From Phycisphaerae bacterium (GTDB taxonomy: Bacteria; Planctomycetota; Phycisphaerae; UBA1845; Fen-1342), in NCBI GenBank assembly GCA_963675745.2, contig CAXXWX010000016.1:96001-160000 (forward strand): DNA of 64,000 nucleotides. Reading direction: 5' to 3'. Positions 12,492 through 20,299 of the stretch are shown in pieces. How positions within the stretch are numbered: the stretch's first letter is position 1; each line of letters opens with the position of its first letter. The position numbers were made by a program, and so were the translations under genes. The notes beneath the pieces are model-generated. The model did no database searches. It was not told where the DNA came from and saw nothing but the letters and a program-made list of their open reading frames with translations.

Positions 12492-12530
12492 CAGCCGACA
12501 TCCTCTGAAGCCGCGGCCGACGTTTTTCAT

Positions 12531-12555
12531 GTAACGGCCGGCGCCTCGCCGGCCG
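12531..12555 (+). repeat. GTAA-type REP palindrome
   Basis: GTAACGGCCGGCGCCTCGCCGGCCG. Confidence 0.7.
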
Positions 12556-12625
12556 CCGACAGCAGCACGGCGGCAGGTCTCACTGCGCTCTACCTACGTT
12601 ACATGAAGACCTGGTTGCGTGAGGC

Positions 12626-13948
12626 TCACTCGCCGTCTGACGCGACATCACTCTGGAATGGCATGGCGGGTTGAACCGGCAGTGAAAACTCGCCGCTCCA
12701 GAAAGCATCCCGTTCCCAATCGCGCAGCGCCAGCTCTTCGTCGCTTGACACACGGATGGACCAGTCTCCCCACGCACCGTCCGACGCGGCCAGCTTGTCG
12801 GCCAGCCAAGCCGGACGGTTCATCGTGGGCATGTGGAAATAGGCTTCAGTCCGCGACAGCCGCTCGAAAAGCGCATCCGCCGGATCGTTCGCGAATACCA
12901 GCCCGCGGCGCGCACTGCCGTTCGAGATCCAATGGCCTGGCGGCACGCGGCACGCGGGAATCAGCGAACTGTGAATGCGCGACCATGCCACAGACTCTCC
13001 ACGGTGCATGAGATCCCACCGCACACACAGGCTGACATCGTCCGGCCACGCGCCGGGCTCCAGGGCAATCCAGATCAGCGCAACGACCGCTGCCCAATGT
13101 GGCGTTTCGTCGTCAGGCTCCATACGCCGAACCACAACTGCGGTGTTGTCACGCAGCAATCGCAGCAACTCCGGCGAGCTCCGCGCCTGGATCGCATCCG
13201 ACGTGTGAGCCACCGCTGTGACGGGGATGTCGGCGACACCGGTCCAGGTGTTAGTCATCGAGGTCAATGGGCCCACGGCGCAGTTGAACCGCACGCTTCT
13301 TGATTCAGCGGCGATAAACGTCCTGCCGTACTCCGATCGCAGTGACGAGTACCTCACTCGCTGTCCGGCCGCCGTGAAAACGGACTCGGGCTTGGCGCTG
13401 ACCGTCCAGGGCGACAGGTCGTGAACCTCGAAGTGGAAAGGCACATCGACCGGCCAGCGGTCACGAGTCCTGATGATCCCCTTTCGCTGAAACAGGTAAC
13501 GCCATTGGTGATCGGAGAGCGTGCGGCTGGAGAGTTCATGCGTTATGGGGGGGTTTTGTGGGACGACGCTCACCGGCGCGTGATGTTCATAGGCCATCGG
13601 GACGAACCAGAGCAGCACATCGGTCGGTACGATCGACAGCCAGCCGTCACGCCTGATTTGCGGGGTGAGGTACAGTGCCCCTGCGGCGAGCACGAACATG
13701 CAACCGGCAGCCGCCATGCGCCAATAGCGGCCTGTGCGGTGCAGTTGCCGCTCGCGGCCGGCGTCGAAGCCGCACTCGGAGCAACGCAGTCCGGGTGTTC
13801 CGCGCATATCGTAGCCACAGCGTGGGCACCGCCGCCAGCCACGCGGGCGATCCCACAGCAATGCGCGATAAAGCACATACGCGCCGACGAGCAGCAGCAT
13901 CCCCGCGACAGGCCAGACCACCCAGATGTTGTCGAGCCAGGTGAGCAT
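12626..13948 (-). CDS. Membrane protein with CPxCGYD...CxECG zinc finger
   Basis: Likely start MLTWLDN. TM helix, CPRCGYDMRGTPGLRCSECG, second TM helix, large soluble domain. Confidence 0.65.
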   Translation of the reverse strand: MLTWLDNIWVVWPVAGMLLLVGAYVLYRALLWDRPRGWRRCPRCGYDMRGTPGLRCSECGFDAGRERQLHRTGRYWRMAAAGCMFVLAAGALYLTPQIRRDGWLSIVPTDVLLWFVPMAYEHHAPVSVVPQNPPITHELSSRTLSDHQWRYLFQRKGIIRTRDRWPVDVPFHFEVHDLSPWTVSAKPESVFTAAGQRVRYSSLRSEYGRTFIAAESRSVRFNCAVGPLTSMTNTWTGVADIPVTAVAHTSDAIQARSSPELLRLLRDNTAVVVRRMEPDDETPHWAAVVALIWIALEPGAWPDDVSLCVRWDLMHRGESVAWSRIHSSLIPACRVPPGHWISNGSARRGLVFANDPADALFERLSRTEAYFHMPTMNRPAWLADKLAASDGAWGDWSIRVSSDEELALRDWERDAFWSGEFSLPVQPAMPFQSDVASDGE

Positions 13949-14022
13949 CAGGGAATTGTACCGGAAGGCGCTTGCCGCGGTGGCAAGTTGCCGGGAGTTC
14001 ACGCCGCACTGCCGGGCTTGAC

Positions 14023-14047
14023 GTAACGGCCGACGCCTCGTCGGCCG
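14023..14047 (+). repeat. GTAA-type REP palindrome
   Basis: GTAACGGCCGACGCCTCGTCGGCCG, with a compensatory change relative to other copies. Confidence 0.7.
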
Positions 14048-14223
14048 TCGCTGTCAGCGCGTGCCGCGCTCGCTCAAAGCGGCGGCCACGACGCGGGCGC
14101 TTGCCGGGAGTTCAACCCGCGCGGCCTTTGGTGAAGTTGCGCAGACGCCAGCAACCGGCGACGATGGGCGACAATCTGCGCGGCGGTCATAGTCACGCGG
14201 CGCCGAGCCACCTACGATCGCGC

Positions 14224-15768
14224 GTGAAGAGCAAGCGAAGCAGAAAGCGTCGCGGGGAGTCCGCCGACCTCTCCGCGTGTCTCCGATGGGCGCGCGAATA
14301 TCTTCCTGATTATTTCACCGACGACCCGTGCCAGTTCCACCGCGAGCTGGTGCGCGACCTTCAGGACTCGCGCAAACGCCTGATCGCCCGCGTGGCTCCG
14401 CGCGGTCACGCCAAGAGCACCTGTAGCGCCTTCGCATACCCCCTGTGGTGCATCTGCCAGCAGTTGCGCCGGAACATCGTGATCATCACCCACGAAACCT
14501 CACTGGCCACACAATTCGTACGCGACATTCGGGGCGAGCTCGAGTGCAACGAGCGGATTCTGGAGGAGTACGGCGACCTCTGCAGCGACGAGGCGGCAGC
14601 CGATGACCGATCGGGGGTTACCCCTTCCGACCGTCCCGCCAAACAGCAGCAGACGAAAGCGACACAGCGACCTAAGCGCGCTGCCAAACGGCGACGAACC
14701 TGGTCACAGACCAAGTTCACGACGACGACCGGGATCACAGTGCAGGCCAAGGGCACCGGTGCCAGCTTCCGCGGCGCGCGCGTCGGTCCACATCGGCCCG
14801 ATTTGATCGTCTGCGACGATATCGAGAAAGATGAGCACGTCGAATCGCCCGAGGGACGCCGCAAGCTCGAACATTGGTTGCGACGCGTGGTCATGCCGGC
14901 CCTGGCGCCGGATGGGCAGCTGCTCGTGCTGGGATCGATCATCCACTACGACTCACTGCTCGCGAATCTGCGTGACAAGCAGCGGTTTCCGCGCTGGGAC
15001 TACCGGGTCTACCGCGCCCTCGAGGCCGAGCAGCAGACGGATGGCACGTATCGTCGTGTGGCATTGTGGCCGGCGCGCTGGCCGGTGGAACGGTTGGACA
15101 TCGAGCGCGAGCGCGTCGGCACGCTGGCGTTCGAGCAGGAATACATGGCCAACCCGATCGATGACACCATCCGCGTGTTCCGCCCGGAGTGGCTGCGGCG
15201 TTACGAAGACGCCGAGCTGCCCGGGAAGCGCGCCGTGACTCTGATGGCCGTCGATCCGGCCACCGGCGTCAGCGGCGGCGACTACTTCGCGCTCTGGGTT
15301 GGCGACCTCGATCCAAACACGGGCGTCATCTTCACCCGCCGGCTCACGCTGGACCGCATCGGCGTTGTGCAGCAGATCAAACGCATCATCGCCGCGTTCG
15401 ACGAGTGGCACCCGATGAGGATAGGGATTGAAACCGTTGCGTATCAGGTCGCGCTCAAGGAAATCCTCGAGGAAGAAAGCCGCAAGCGCGGCCTGTACAT
15501 GCCGATCGTGTCGCTCCAGACAACGGCGAATAAACGCGCCCGCATCGAAGGTAGCTCGACGTTTTACGAGAACGGTATGTTCCGATTGCCGCCACAGCTT
15601 GACCCGGAAATCGAGCGCCAGTTTCTGCACTTCCCCAAGGCCCGCCATGACGATGCGCCCGACGTATGCGCGATGGGCATCGAATTGGCGCGAGCACTGC
15701 GCGGCGGACTGGGTGTCGATGGCACCATCGGCGGAACGAATCCGTTTGCGCGCAACGGCGGATGGTGA
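14224..15768 (+). CDS. Phage terminase large subunit (orphan); start uncertain
   Basis: Walker A APRGHAKST, RGAR...RPDLIVCDDIE Walker B, LWPARW, FEQEY, nuclease motifs AVDPA, IETVAYQ, NKRARI, FPKARHDDAPD. Confidence 0.88.
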   Translation: MKSKRSRKRRGESADLSACLRWAREYLPDYFTDDPCQFHRELVRDLQDSRKRLIARVAPRGHAKSTCSAFAYPLWCICQQLRRNIVIITHETSLATQFVRDIRGELECNERILEEYGDLCSDEAAADDRSGVTPSDRPAKQQQTKATQRPKRAAKRRRTWSQTKFTTTTGITVQAKGTGASFRGARVGPHRPDLIVCDDIEKDEHVESPEGRRKLEHWLRRVVMPALAPDGQLLVLGSIIHYDSLLANLRDKQRFPRWDYRVYRALEAEQQTDGTYRRVALWPARWPVERLDIERERVGTLAFEQEYMANPIDDTIRVFRPEWLRRYEDAELPGKRAVTLMAVDPATGVSGGDYFALWVGDLDPNTGVIFTRRLTLDRIGVVQQIKRIIAAFDEWHPMRIGIETVAYQVALKEILEEESRKRGLYMPIVSLQTTANKRARIEGSSTFYENGMFRLPPQLDPEIERQFLHFPKARHDDAPDVCAMGIELARALRGGLGVDGTIGGTNPFARNGGW

Positions 15769-16013
15769 GGCCCGGCCAGCTACGCGCACCGCCACAATCG
15801 CCGGCGTGAGTTGTCACGATCTCCGGTTCTTCGGTTATCATCATGCGCACCGTGGCCCCGTGTTTGCAGCTCGCCGCGGAAGCCGCCACGATCCCGCGTG
15901 GCCGAAGCGGATCGCCAAAACCGCCGTGAGATTCATGTGCCGCCACGGGGCGCGGCTGTTAAGATCATCTTCGCAACGGCCTGTTTGCTGTTACTCGGAC
16001 ACGAGGAGCTCAG

Positions 16014-16385
16014 ATGCCAAGCGGCGCGCAACTCAGCATTGACACGATAGAGGATGTGACCGTTGTGAGCTTTGAGGACACGCGGATTCTCGGGACGGTG
16101 CAGATCGAGGCGATCAAGTCCGAGCTGAACCGTCTGGTAACAGAGCGCAAATGCCAGAAACTCATCCTCGAGTTCAGCCGAGTGCAGTTTCTGGCATCGT
16201 CGGCGGTCGGGGCACTCCTGAACCTGCAGAAACAGAGCTCGGCGATCAAGGGAACGCTGGTCATCAGCGGGCTGAAGGACAAGCTGCTGAAGATCTTCGA
16301 GATAATGAAGATCAAGAAGCTCTTTACGTTCTGTCCTACGCTGGACGAGGCCCTGCAGCATTTCGGACTTAGCGAATCGGCTTAG
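16014..16385 (+). CDS. STAS-domain anti-sigma factor antagonist
   Basis: LILEFSRVQFLASSAVGALL...LLKIFEIMKI; GAGGAG RBS. Confidence 0.9.
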   Translation: MPSGAQLSIDTIEDVTVVSFEDTRILGTVQIEAIKSELNRLVTERKCQKLILEFSRVQFLASSAVGALLNLQKQSSAIKGTLVISGLKDKLLKIFEIMKIKKLFTFCPTLDEALQHFGLSESA

Positions 16386-16453
16386 CGTGACGCCAATCGA
16401 CGCAACTCCAAGTGCCGATAACGTGTGCTGCGAAACATGCTCGGGCATTTGTT

Positions 16454-16482
16454 TTGCCACCGGGGTTTGTCGGGGCTAGTAT
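16454..16482 (+). promoter_or_regulatory. Putative sigma70 promoter
   Basis: TTGCCA-N17-TAGTAT. Confidence 0.45.
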
Positions 16483-16585
16483 ATATGTGGCAGGGTCAGC
16501 TCAACGCGGGCCAGAAGTCTTGACTAATTCATAATCGTCTTAGTGTGCGCTTACTCAGCGCGCCTGTGTACCGAGGGTTGAGAGC

Positions 16586-17242
16586 ATGTTGTCTGCGTTT
16601 TCACGGCGTGTTTTACTGAGCGGGCTCGTGTGCCTCCTGGGGGGCAGCGTCAGCTTTGCGGAACTCAGCCAGGTTTCCGTGTTCCTCGATCAGTCGAACG
16701 AGTTCGCCGACGGCCAGATGTACGGGCGTGTGGACGTGACTGCGAATTCGCAAACCGGCGTCGTGAGCTTCCATGTCGAGGCGTTTTCCAATCCCGAGTA
16801 TGACGTGCCTGGGTGGAACCAGGGTTTTGACAGCTTTGGGTTCAACTTCAGTGGAATTGCCGACCGGGTCTGGACCTGGTCGTGGTCGAAGCCTACCAAC
16901 TGGATCAGCCGGACGAACCGGCGCCAGGATGGCTTTGGGCTGTTCGACATCATCATTCAAAAGGGGCCCGGCGGCAGTCGCCAAGAGCCGCTCGACTTTG
17001 AGTTTACCCTCCCGAATGCCAGCGATGCCGTGGTCAGCAATTTCATCGACCTGTCGCGTGACCAGGCCGACCAGGGCAACCAGGTCTTCGCAGCCCACTA
17101 TGCCGGATTTAACGCCGGCGACTCGGTTTCCAGCCACTTCATTGGCGGCTCGACGCCGCACGTTGTCCCCTTGCCAAGCGCCCTGTTGCTGGGCGGCTTT
17201 GGGCTATCCCTTGTCTGCCGTCTACGGCGCCGCCTGGCCTAG
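16586..17242 (+). CDS. Secreted protein with VPLP-type PEP-CTERM-like sorting tail (paralog 1)
   Basis: Signal peptide; C-terminus VPLPSALLLGGFGLSLVCRLRRRLA. Confidence 0.85.
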   Translation: MLSAFSRRVLLSGLVCLLGGSVSFAELSQVSVFLDQSNEFADGQMYGRVDVTANSQTGVVSFHVEAFSNPEYDVPGWNQGFDSFGFNFSGIADRVWTWSWSKPTNWISRTNRRQDGFGLFDIIIQKGPGGSRQEPLDFEFTLPNASDAVVSNFIDLSRDQADQGNQVFAAHYAGFNAGDSVSSHFIGGSTPHVVPLPSALLLGGFGLSLVCRLRRRLA

Positions 17243-17441
17243 CCGGCAACCAACTGACGCCGCTGTCTCCCCACCGGCGCGCACCACCCCGAAAAATGCC
17301 CGATAAACCCTCCGGGGAAAATACGTATTTGCTTTGGCGGGCGGCCTATCCACGGTATTATGGACTCGGCAGGCTCGTAGGGTCCCGGGTGTGGCCTTTC
17401 GGAAGATGTCCGTGCATCGTCGTGATTTTAAGGGGAAGATT

Positions 17442-18098
17442 GTGAGCCCATCACTTCCACGCAGATTCCTCGTCGTCGGCTTGATTTGCACGCTTGGCGC
17501 CGCCATCAGTGTTGCGGGCTTCAGCGAGATGTCGATCTTCCTTGATCAGTCGAACGAGTTCGCGGACGGCCCGAGCTATGGCCGTGTGGACATCACGGCT
17601 GATTCCACCACCGGTCTGGTCACATTCCATGTCGACTCGTATACGGTTGCCGACTACGTCAGCCTGAGTTCGAACGCCGGCTTTCAGACCTTTGGCTTCA
17701 ACTTCACCGGAGTCAGCGATCCGGTGTCGGCGTGGAGCGACTGGTCGCGCCCGAGCGGTTGGGGCGTGCACACGAACTCAAACCAGGACGGTTTTGGAGA
17801 GTTCGACGTCGTCCTGAGCGGCAATGGCGGCAACCGCGTTGAGTCGATCGAGTTCGAGTTCAAGCTCCCCGACGCCAGCCAGGCCGTAGTTGACAACTTC
17901 ATCGATTTCTCACATGACTCGGCGGGCCAGGGCAACGTCTTCTTTGCGGGCCACTACGCCGGCTTCACCGGCACCCCGGGCAGCAATTACATTGGCGGCA
18001 GCAAGATCGTGCCGCCTCAGGTTCCGATACCAGGGGCAGCGCTGTTGGGGGCCATTGGGTTGTCGGTCGTGTGCGGGATTCGTCGTCGGCTAGCCTGA
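17442..18098 (+). CDS. Secreted protein with VPIP-type PEP-CTERM-like sorting tail (paralog 2)
   Basis: GTG start after AGGGGAAG. Shares FLDQSNEFADG, YGRVD, FGFNF, QDGFG.FD and GN..FA.HYAGF with paralog 1; tail VPIPGAALLGAIGLSVVCGIRRRLA. Confidence 0.85.
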   Translation: MSPSLPRRFLVVGLICTLGAAISVAGFSEMSIFLDQSNEFADGPSYGRVDITADSTTGLVTFHVDSYTVADYVSLSSNAGFQTFGFNFTGVSDPVSAWSDWSRPSGWGVHTNSNQDGFGEFDVVLSGNGGNRVESIEFEFKLPDASQAVVDNFIDFSHDSAGQGNVFFAGHYAGFTGTPGSNYIGGSKIVPPQVPIPGAALLGAIGLSVVCGIRRRLA

Positions 18099-18187
18099 AG
18101 CCTGACACTCGCCAACAGCCGGTGGTGCGAGCGCTGAGCGCATCCACCCCAGGGTTTATATGTCGCTACTCACCCGACCGGCTCACT

Positions 18188-19306
18188 CTATGCGCTGCCG
18201 CCCAGCAGCCTCACCAGCACCCCGCGCATTTCCTGTAGAAAACGCGACCCGCTGAACCGCCCCATCAGCGTGTGCATGTGCATCGGGTCAAAACCTGTGT
18301 GGGTGGCACGCTCGATGGCGTCAATCACGGCGTCCGTTGTCTGCTCCTCGAACCACACGCCTGTTTCACCAGGGACAACCGTCTCGCACGCCCCCCCGAC
18401 GGCATAGGCCACCACCGGGCAACCATGGGCCATCGCCTCGACCGGCACGATGCCGAAATCCTCTTCACCGGGGAATAGCAGCGCCGCGGCACGGCGGTAG
18501 TGCGCGTTGATCACATCCGCACGCTGCCAGCCCAGCCACTCCACATTGGCCGACTTGCGGCGTTTCAGGCGGCTCACGTCGGGGCCTTCACCGATCACGA
18601 CCAGATGCCGGCCGAGTGCTTCGGCCGCCAGGAGTGCCAGGTCGAGCCGCTTGTAGGGCACGTGATGGCCAACCGCGAGTAGAAAATCCTCGCGGGCGGT
18701 GGTCGTGGGTTTGGACGGCAGATCAACGGGCGGATAGACCACCACGCTATCGCGCCCGTAATAGCGCTCTATGCGCGCGGCCACGTGCCGGGAATTGGCC
18801 ACGAACTGGTCCACACGCTGCGCCGCCGCGTGGTCGGCCTTGCGAATACGGGCAGTCGTCCACTCCCAAAGCGGGTACAGAACACGCGGTAGAGTGCGGC
18901 GATATTCGCGTGACAACTCTGGTTCCCAGGCGTAGCGCGCCGGGGAGTGGCAATAGCAGGCGACTTTGCTGCGCGCGTGTGGCGTCATCGCCTTGGCGAT
19001 CGCGGCGTCAGAGCAAACGACCAGATCCACATCGGGCAGCCGCATCCGGCGATAGGCCAGCGGCATGAGCGGCAGCAACTTGGGGTACAGCTTCAGCGCG
19101 TGGGGGATGTGCTGGATAAACGACGTGTGGATTTCCCTAGTCGGATCGTCGGGTTCGAAGCGGAAATCCGGGTTGTGAACAAGCGTGTAGATCGGACTGT
19201 CGGCTGGCAGCAGCGCTGCGATGGCCTCCAGCACGCGTTCACCGCCCCGCCGACGAATGAGCCAGTGATGCGTCAGGGCCGCGGTGCATTCCAGTCGATC
19301 ATCCAT
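18188..19306 (-). CDS. GT4-family glycosyltransferase
   Basis: Start MDDRLE. HHWL..RRGGERVL, YCHSPARYAW, YKRLDL, EEDFGIVPVEAMAHG. Confidence 0.92.
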   Translation of the reverse strand: MDDRLECTAALTHHWLIRRRGGERVLEAIAALLPADSPIYTLVHNPDFRFEPDDPTREIHTSFIQHIPHALKLYPKLLPLMPLAYRRMRLPDVDLVVCSDAAIAKAMTPHARSKVACYCHSPARYAWEPELSREYRRTLPRVLYPLWEWTTARIRKADHAAAQRVDQFVANSRHVAARIERYYGRDSVVVYPPVDLPSKPTTTAREDFLLAVGHHVPYKRLDLALLAAEALGRHLVVIGEGPDVSRLKRRKSANVEWLGWQRADVINAHYRRAAALLFPGEEDFGIVPVEAMAHGCPVVAYAVGGACETVVPGETGVWFEEQTTDAVIDAIERATHTGFDPMHMHTLMGRFSGSRFLQEMRGVLVRLLGGSA

Positions 19307-19345
19307 GGCGAGAGTATAGCGGACGAGGCGGGGGGAGAAGAAACC

Positions 19346-19393
19346 AGGCAACAAGGCAACGAGGCAGCTAGGCAACGAGGCGGCTAGGCGGCG
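19346..19393 (+). repeat. Six tandem degenerate 8-mers (AGGCRRCN)
   Basis: AGGCAACA AGGCAACG AGGCAGCT AGGCAACG AGGCGGCT AGGCGGCG, in a divergent intergenic region. Confidence 0.8.
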
Positions 19394-19438
19394 GTGTATG
19401 GTTGGCGTGGTGGTGGGGTGGGGTTTACACTTGCGCGC

Positions 19439-20299
19439 ATGGAGCGTGGGTTGCATTGGTTGAGTGGTCGCCGTGAGCGTGTGCTGGCATGCGCGGTTGT
19501 TGTCTGTGTCGCCAGCGCCGGCTGCGAACGACCGCCCCCGCCGCCGGGAACAAGTCCGACCACGCAGCCGGCCGCGCCCTCACGAGCAACGGAGCCAATC
19601 GCTGACCTGGCGCCCGGTTGGGACACATGGACGGTCGAGGACGCCGTTGCCAGGCTGGATGACGAGCAATTCGCGCTTAGTGCGGCGGTGCGGCTGGTCC
19701 GGCTGGCGGAACTGCAACCGGTAATGCTGCCCGACCCGCTACCGGCGGACCTGGCGGCTACGCTGGCGGTTGTACGGCTGGCGGACGATCAATGGGCGGT
19801 TGGCGTCCCAGAGATCGGGGCACCCGACCGCCTGTGGGGACCGGTCCTGATCGCGCGCGACGGAGGTGTGACGCTGATCGCCGAAGGCACCGCCGACCCC
19901 GTGCTACTGCGCATCTCCGACAACCCGGAGGTATTTCCGCACGTCGCGGTCGCGCGTGACGAGGTTGTGCTGCCCAGCCGGCCCGACGTCTCGGCCATCT
20001 GGCTCGTCGGCCCGGAGAGCGTGGGTTTCGCGGTGCGATTTGAGGAGGGATATCCCTATATCGCGCTGGTGTTGTGGGACCAGCGCGACATCGAAGTCGC
20101 GCGGTACACGTGGGAGCCGTGGGAATTGGTCTTTGTCGGTCCGGCCGGGGATTCGCTGCCCGATCCGCCCGGCGGCGAGTTTGAAATGGACCTGGATCTC
20201 AGTGAGCTGTTGGAGCCGGTCGGCGGAATAATCGAGGAACCGATTGAGCTCCCAGAGCAGCCGGCCGTGGACCTGGGTGCTGAGCCGGAACCAGCCTGA
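19439..20299 (+). CDS. Acidic lipoprotein of unknown function
   Basis: Hydrophobic stretch ending ASAG-C (lipobox), then a Pro-rich linker. Confidence 0.65.
   Translation: MERGLHWLSGRRERVLACAVVVCVASAGCERPPPPPGTSPTTQPAAPSRATEPIADLAPGWDTWTVEDAVARLDDEQFALSAAVRLVRLAELQPVMLPDPLPADLAATLAVVRLADDQWAVGVPEIGAPDRLWGPVLIARDGGVTLIAEGTADPVLLRISDNPEVFPHVAVARDEVVLPSRPDVSAIWLVGPESVGFAVRFEEGYPYIALVLWDQRDIEVARYTWEPWELVFVGPAGDSLPDPPGGEFEMDLDLSELLEPVGGIIEEPIELPEQPAVDLGAEPEPA

Follow-up and report, generated by a model that had tools for sequence, protein, structure and literature searches.

Mu-like transposable phages package DNA by a headful mechanism, with host sequence at the ends. A non-specific headful motor has been argued to suit a gene transfer agent (GTA), and RcGTA has a small terminase (both from the sections of PMC7947584 drawn on here). 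In the part of PMC9662315 that we use, GTAs such as RcGTA and BhGTA/VSH-1 are described as having a Caudoviricete-derived head and motor that were endogenised over several loci, are held under purifying selection and come without replication genes. Further GTA features given there are largely vertical inheritance alongside the host, random host DNA inside the particles, failure to package the complete set of their own genes, and DNA delivery to other cells. Capsid-forming PICIs (cf-PICIs), as presented in the portion of 10.1101/2025.02.11.637232 consulted here, form their own heads and package DNA without making tails, borrowing those of phages.

The terminase gene described here lies in a 64-kb window (the whole stretch of DNA that was analysed, 64,000 nucleotides of one contig) of a Phycisphaerae genome, hereafter G000. 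Its closest named phage counterparts are D3112 (Casadabanvirus) and Burkholderia phage vB_PR2c, whose terminases also belong to phrog_38 and are 29 to 31% identical to it; a head operon elsewhere in the genome has Portal_Mu, Mu-like_Pro, phrog_1731, Mu-like_gpT and Gp36 in common with these phages, in the same order. Unlike them, the planctomycete system has yielded no transposase A or B, gpF, gpG, small terminase or tail in our searches, its terminase is unlinked from the head genes in 64 of 66 loci and fixed in the family, and an extra GNAT gene follows the portal.

The likeness to GTAs is of another kind. PHROGs matches show that the particle proteins are Caudoviricete-derived, and genomic evidence places the genes at four loci on four contigs of G000, under purifying selection and without replication genes, features that can be set beside those in the part of PMC9662315 cited above. 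Judged by its genes, the system would work like a GTA head system, although it differs from GTAs in its separate, Mu-like origin, in having its own operator and candidate regulator, in weak deep co-diversification with the host and in that no tail was found, and it differs from RcGTA in that no small terminase was found either. The tail-less design is common to cf-PICIs (10.1101/2025.02.11.637232, same portion), which however are mobile islands packaging their own DNA, whereas the planctomycete genes are scattered over the chromosome without mobility genes at the loci seen. Identity with a cf-PICI was rejected because the terminase is so rarely linked to the head genes and has no conserved integrase neighbour.

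We put at roughly 0.62 the probability that the terminase is the packaging motor of head-only particles of Mu origin, a system that the host has kept at four or more separate loci and that is probably a tamed GTA-like one rather than prophage debris. No description of a scattered planctomycete head system was found in the literature searched (main texts, with most subscription journals outside the scope), and planctomycetes are mentioned 0 times in PMC13669383 and PMC13626063.

Results

An intact large terminase among host genes

The reading frame translates without a stop into 514 aa (534 aa in the database gene call, which begins at the alternative ATG). The product matches phrog_38, terminase large subunit, at E 1.8e-92 and Terminase_6C in Pfam, and it has the N-terminal ATPase with Walker A and B motifs and the C-terminal RNase H-like nuclease that characterize this protein family. 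Its predicted model (mean pLDDT 75) resembles the solved terminases PhiV-1, T4 gp17 and D6E, while a PDB sequence search returned 0 matches. The gene is thus an intact D3112/Mu-type large terminase, and every ATPase and nuclease motif quoted as intact in the first-pass annotation of this DNA was found in it (Table 1).

Table 1. Positions of the terminase, its motifs and neighbours, and the other loci of the system. Plain numbers refer to the window; entries with a contig name refer to G000.
Feature	Position	Strand	Remarks
Terminase large subunit, D3112/Mu-like (phrog_38)	14224..15768	+	Alternative start ATG 14164
Walker A, APRGHAKST	14395..14421	+	Exact in 63/67 family orthologs; one GHGKST; three partial sequences
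Variable low-complexity basic loop, ATPase domain	14593..14691	+	pLDDT <50
Walker B, LIVCDDIE	14803..14826	+	CDD[IL]E in 67/67 family orthologs
Nuclease first aspartate, AVDPA	15247..15261	+	DPA in 67/67 family orthologs
Nuclease glutamate, ETVAYQ	15430..15447	+	E in 67/67 family orthologs
Nuclease last aspartates, HDDAPD	15646..15663	+	HDD[AG]PD in 66/67 family orthologs; one partial sequence
Upstream host gene, outside the system	12626..14002	-	CxxC pairs; without Pfam hit; not recurring as neighbour
STAS anti-anti-sigma gene downstream, outside the system	16014..16385	+	BLAST clustering: partner in no other locus
11-gene Mu-like head operon	C19:242.5-249.5 kb		Another contig than the terminase
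Ribbon-helix-helix-like 107-aa gene	C7:157048-157371		
175-aa virion-derived gene	C15:361.6-362.1 kb		

The low-complexity basic loop that the annotation had noticed in the ATPase domain is real; the segment spans 20 aa in D3112 and vB_PR2c and 21 to 161 aa in 26 family orthologs, with 54 aa in G000. In 59 of 65 orthologs one of the two C-terminal residues is a tryptophan, which would suit a docking role. Codon use is host-like, as had been proposed (65th percentile for CAI and 56th for GC3 among 2623 genes), and the 64-kb window contains a single match, the terminase itself, to proteins from two Mu-like phages and 49 viral loci, in keeping with the earlier statement that no further phage gene lies there. 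The upstream gene, previously labelled a zinc-finger membrane protein, does have CxxC pairs and, by eye, a hydrophobic start, but the label finds no backing in Pfam. The downstream STAS gene was verified by Pfam; the idea that its synteny with the terminase might be conserved fails, as it does not recur across 66 terminase loci.

Assembly contigs from run X1 span positions 12530-15140 and 15111-20000 with zero differences and even depth, which argues against a chimera, with the proviso that X1 is perhaps the source sample and hence not independent. A short repeat at 12529-12559, common to other contigs, breaks assembly contigs. Downstream, at 16586-18098, the window holds two tandem paralogous secreted genes without a Pfam hit, whose tail we take to be PEP-CTERM-like.

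One terminase locus throughout the family

The annotation had proposed to check whether orthologs are single-copy with dN/dS well below 1, and both proved to be so. The gene is present at one locus in 70 of the 72 family genomes, and in 46/46 of those of high quality, with no internal stops; pairwise dN/dS is 0.09 to 0.38 (16 pairs, selected for closeness or for including G000, by a simple counting method at high GC). Where a genome yielded more than one terminase row, the rows are fragments of a single gene, broken up by the loop, by a contig end or, in G056 (L144), by ~3.7 kb of inserted DNA that contains IS-like transposase pieces. Sixteen genomes of other families of the order gave weak matches only, in 6 of them, and full-length phrog_38 genes are patchy across the class. 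No immediate neighbour of the terminase recurs in more than three genera over the 66 loci, and close species have neighbours in common.

The annotation had named a patchy distribution with nearest homologs in complete prophages among the outcomes that would speak against its idea. D3112-like and Burkholderia Mu-like phages, at the identities given above, supply the nearest GenBank phage proteins, so that phage relatives are only ~30% identical; relatives on viral contigs come from at least 47 loci, at 23 to 28% identity among the matches listed. By comparison, the best 120 database homologs, the gene itself aside, are 61 to 75% identical; those with names are Phycisphaerae or planctomycetes, and 60/60 named loci belong to uncultured planctomycete assemblies. 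Several of the named records are MAGs from reactors or wetlands. An ordinary prophage remnant or an assembly chimera, for which it can be said that the nearest named relatives are temperate phage proteins, is scarcely credible when all 46 good genomes hold a gene free of stops at dN/dS well below 1 and the run X1 contigs cover the junctions.

A Mu-like head operon on another contig

The terminase is not the orphan it was first called; a head operon lies on another contig of G000 (Table 1). The front genes are, in order, those for portal, GNAT acetyltransferase, protease/scaffold, decoration protein, major capsid protein and gp36 adaptor; then come genes of 107, 95 and 99 aa, a lipoprotein-like gene and a 70-aa holin-like gene, the last two labelled by eye from hydrophobic segments. 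Head gene labels rest on PHROGs and Pfam matches, with PHROGs E-values of 1.9e-73 for the portal, 3.1e-52 for the capsid, 2.9e-34 for the protease and 5.2e-18 for the adaptor. For the operon's own 107-aa product the nearest Atlas clusters are mostly viral, and the capsid is 30 to 45% identical to those of Mu-like phages, which are among its nearest relatives.

A Mu-type portal is present in G000 and in 23/24 sampled relatives, and the capsid gene in 61 of the 72 family genomes (43/46 of high quality). Among 22 operons fetched, 18 have the six front genes in identical order; the exceptions are G012, cut by a contig end, and G001, G016 and G007, which have no capsid genes inside or after a portal that is present. 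The operon of G018 ends after gp36. Head gene dN/dS is 0.04 to 0.23. HK97-type portals (PF04860) numbered 0 in G000 and were found in 2/24 family genomes. Between portal and protease, the family's operons have a fixed GNAT gene (L113:15677-16237), which four sister-family operons lack. G043 has an additional head operon that is decayed (L151; 36 to 54% identity) yet retains the promoter box described below.

A promoter signal and two further loci

Of the 21 portal upstream regions, 13 contain TCTAGA (0.2 expected by chance), and the full signal is a palindromic box, CTAG-N5-CTAG, located ~11 bases before a TAnnnT box. A matrix built on these 21 regions, with terminase upstreams held out and a threshold score of 14, finds the box in 21/63 terminase upstreams (16/38 genera), the background at that score being 0.21% of 3375 G000 upstreams and 0/446 in relatives. 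The remaining 42, G000 among them (score 0.3), are without it.

When the box was followed across the genome (full scan in G000 only), two further loci came to light. The first is a ribbon-helix-helix-like gene of 107 aa, held by 64 of the 72 family genomes; in a direct comparison it was present in 22/24 family and 0/16 other-family genomes. CTAG lies within 80 nt of this gene in 27/30 cases against 289/3381 controls, and in 27/30 its place is just after the -10 box. The predicted dimer of the protein scores 0.63 (best control 0.00) at a contact agreement of at least 92% and pLDDT of at least 73, passing a mark that 20/30 solved pairs and 1/23 solved single chains reach; its interface, residues 5-14 and 30-43, is as in RHH dimers, and the pass may reflect likeness to solved RHH dimers. 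The Atlas lead for the protein is RH3_dom at 0.89; a Pfam search gave no hit, and a fold search with the monomer found nothing above Z 4.6.

The second locus is a 175-aa gene present in 66 of the 72 genomes, which matches a gene of a sister-family particle operon (E 1e-8; HMM 2e-12) and whose upstreams score at least 14 in 10/30 cases (for this and the 107-aa gene, the upstreams of the best 30 hits each were used). The G000 copy has frame changes, as do 4/122 tested loci in that assembly. An 80-aa gene follows it in 14/30 loci (L327-L356) and was not found in G000. Going by these sequence matches, the box stands at the promoters of all four loci across the family. A role as an SOS-like signal was rejected, no repair genes being recognised by eye among the top G000 box sites. 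A strong box also stands upstream of parB in two genomes (G000 C19:93245 and G083, L362), and two box sites lie at IS ends. An Rfam search on five loci returned 0 matches.

The annotation's second suggestion, a terminase repurposed as a stand-alone host ATPase-nuclease no longer tied to heads, has one striking instance in G087 (99% complete, 7 contigs), where an intact terminase with a strong box is accompanied by no portal or capsid match. Freely varying neighbours, the two thirds of terminase copies that are without the box and the variable inserted loop would also sit well with it. It is nonetheless hard to reconcile with the two loci (G017 and G045, of 66) in which the terminase lies upstream of the portal and directly adjoins it, with the head operon's box before the terminase in so many genera, or with the nearly constant C-terminal tryptophan, and we rate it as less likely, indeed improbable.

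Searches for the remaining parts

Searching the genome for scattered portal, capsid, tail and small terminase genes, as the annotation had recommended, succeeded for the portal and capsid; in G000, homology searches found no tail and no Mu-type small terminase that could be the cognate one. For gpF, Mu transposase, Mu gp27, sheath and DUF1804, family searches of G000 came back empty; in three of them the controls were empty too, which makes those absences weak. D3112 A, B, tube, gpF and gpG matched G000 at E 0.075 or worse, against 4e-20 for the gp36 control, and when genes of D3112, vB_PR2c and the sister operons served as queries, tblastn and HMM searches matched only the terminase and head genes, with the reservation that such searches miss remote homologs, as they did the 175-aa gene. 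No integrase, transposase or replication gene was seen at any of the loci. We rejected a Mu-like transposable prophage on the E-values for D3112 A, B and tube and because host genes flank the head operon.

A P27-type small terminase at G000 C27:14480-14968 (PF05119, E 5e-27) was rejected as a partner, since it adjoins a ParB-methylase relic and was not found in 5/5 relatives (a search with no positive control). The surrounding 14.5-19.7 kb of C27 (L295) is a relic element, separate from the head system, in which the ParB-methylase is frameshifted. After a tRNA-like end, G000 C23:241.7-246 kb (L294) carries a satellite-like island with two short HTH-type genes, a 791-aa primase-like gene and two weak box-like sites (~12 bits).

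That the homology searches of G000 found no delivery apparatus gives some weight to a different use of the heads and motor, namely defence or controlled cell death, in which the terminase would cut or sequester DNA, or the heads would divert the tails of an infecting phage, and the holin-like gene would kill the cell. The fixed nuclease residues, the repeated loss of capsid genes and the more frequent retention of the terminase (70 vs 61 of 72) could be understood in the same way. On the other hand, the portal, protease, capsid, decoration and adaptor genes are all under purifying selection and have the box in common with the terminase, which fits complete, filled heads, and there is no defence-island context around the terminase; we consider this use unlikely.

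Inheritance within the family

In the tree, the terminases of the family cluster together on a long stem, separate from the phage and G040 outgroups (support 1.0). Within this cluster, 7 of the 16 genera with several species are monophyletic, where 2000 shuffles gave at most 2, and 9/16 are not. The annotation had asked whether the gene tree is congruent with the species tree, and at depth it is not: the RpoC topology is rejected by the terminase data (delta lnL 199, p-AU 4e-7; ten random trees, 240 to 331), although three RpoC clades are not (p-AU 0.66, 0.27 and 0.49). Over the 16 genomes common to these data sets, the fraction of the random-to-best gap that the RpoC tree closes is 0.96 for NusA, 0.46 for the terminase, 0.53 for the capsid and 0.27 for the portal; the portal tree, too, is rejected by the terminase data (p-AU 0.004). 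These tests exclude G001, which is partial, and G003, for which there is no RpoC. Terminase and RpoC distances correlate (Mantel r 0.32, p 0.002); shared splits between terminase and RpoC are 0/22, an uninformative figure as the two terminase halves also share 0/22. The poor deep congruence reflects either gene exchange within the family or fast, star-like divergence that misleads a simple model.

Such incongruence, with RpoC and between terminase and portal, would be expected of a satellite or prophage that is restricted to the family but still moves, with species exchanging its pieces, much as in capsid-forming PICIs, and both the head without a tail and the second, decayed operon of G043 could be cited for it. 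We find this highly improbable, given the lack of any integrase, transposase or replication gene at the loci seen, the single locus per genome, the 77 to 600 kb that separate the loci in the near-complete genomes G055, G004, G048 and G056, the lack of a close viral contig (best 23 to 28% among the matches listed), and the way in which close species form clades and have neighbours in common.

Discussion

The first-pass annotation's leading idea, a domesticated motor of a dispersed GTA-like system, is supported by these results, because there is a separate, conserved head operon, because the terminase is family-wide at a single locus under purifying selection, and because its phage relatives are so distant. 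Starting from the observed gene content, conservation, selection and shared promoter signal, we infer how binding, induction, packaging, release and delivery might proceed. The dimeric ribbon-helix-helix-like protein would bind the box and keep the loci off. Upon induction in some cells, proheads would assemble, and the terminase would fill them by a headful mechanism, mostly with host DNA, as neither a cognate small terminase nor the ends of an element would be there to guide it. The gp36 adaptor would then close the head, and the holin-like, membrane and lipoprotein genes would release the particle.

A fuller version of this scheme, which we offer tentatively and hold to be well short of an even chance, is that of a host-owned, tail-less GTA of Mu origin. 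Its heads, filled with chromosome fragments under a dedicated repressor, would be delivered by the tails of co-infecting phages or by direct uptake; its terminase would have replaced that of the sister families; and its star-like, host-incongruent trees would record exchange of the system's genes within the family. Evidence against a simple GTA reading comes from the poor fit of the deep trees to the host, from the terminase of G000, which is without the box, and from G087, which is without a head. If DNA transfer proves true, this would be an independent origin of a GTA, from a transposable phage, in Planctomycetota and without an encoded tail; we know of no GTA that lacks one. The operator and its candidate regulator provide a handle for induction and for finding more scattered parts.

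The sister families offer a natural experiment in how phages are dismantled and rewired during domestication, as they have the same head with another terminase, linked, and more virion genes. These families belong to the taxonomic order of G000. A portal was found in 11/16 of their sampled genomes, and the portal, protease, decoration, capsid and gp36 genes of their operons (L128, L130-L132) are homologous to those described here, at 31 to 44% identity. The terminase differs (phrog_5909 or phrog_2 in the three tested) and lies directly before the portal in 5/5 operons fetched. Four operons have further rear genes which, judging by their order and a phrog_490 match, look like a tail tip. The operons are without the box, and the genomes without the ribbon-helix-helix-like gene. 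On the simplest history, the Mu-like head module would be as old as the order; this family would have acquired a different terminase for it, whose gene later moved away.

One sister-family genome, G040, has a full-length phrog_38 terminase in an element composed of ParB-methylase, HTH, terminase and serine-recombinase genes (L150); it may be related to the donor from which this family obtained its own terminase. Genomes across the class commonly carry a multi-copy family of ~760-aa proteins (L026, L027, L028, L030 and others) with an N-terminal match to phrog_38, and each of its genes is preceded by one of 70 to 95 aa.
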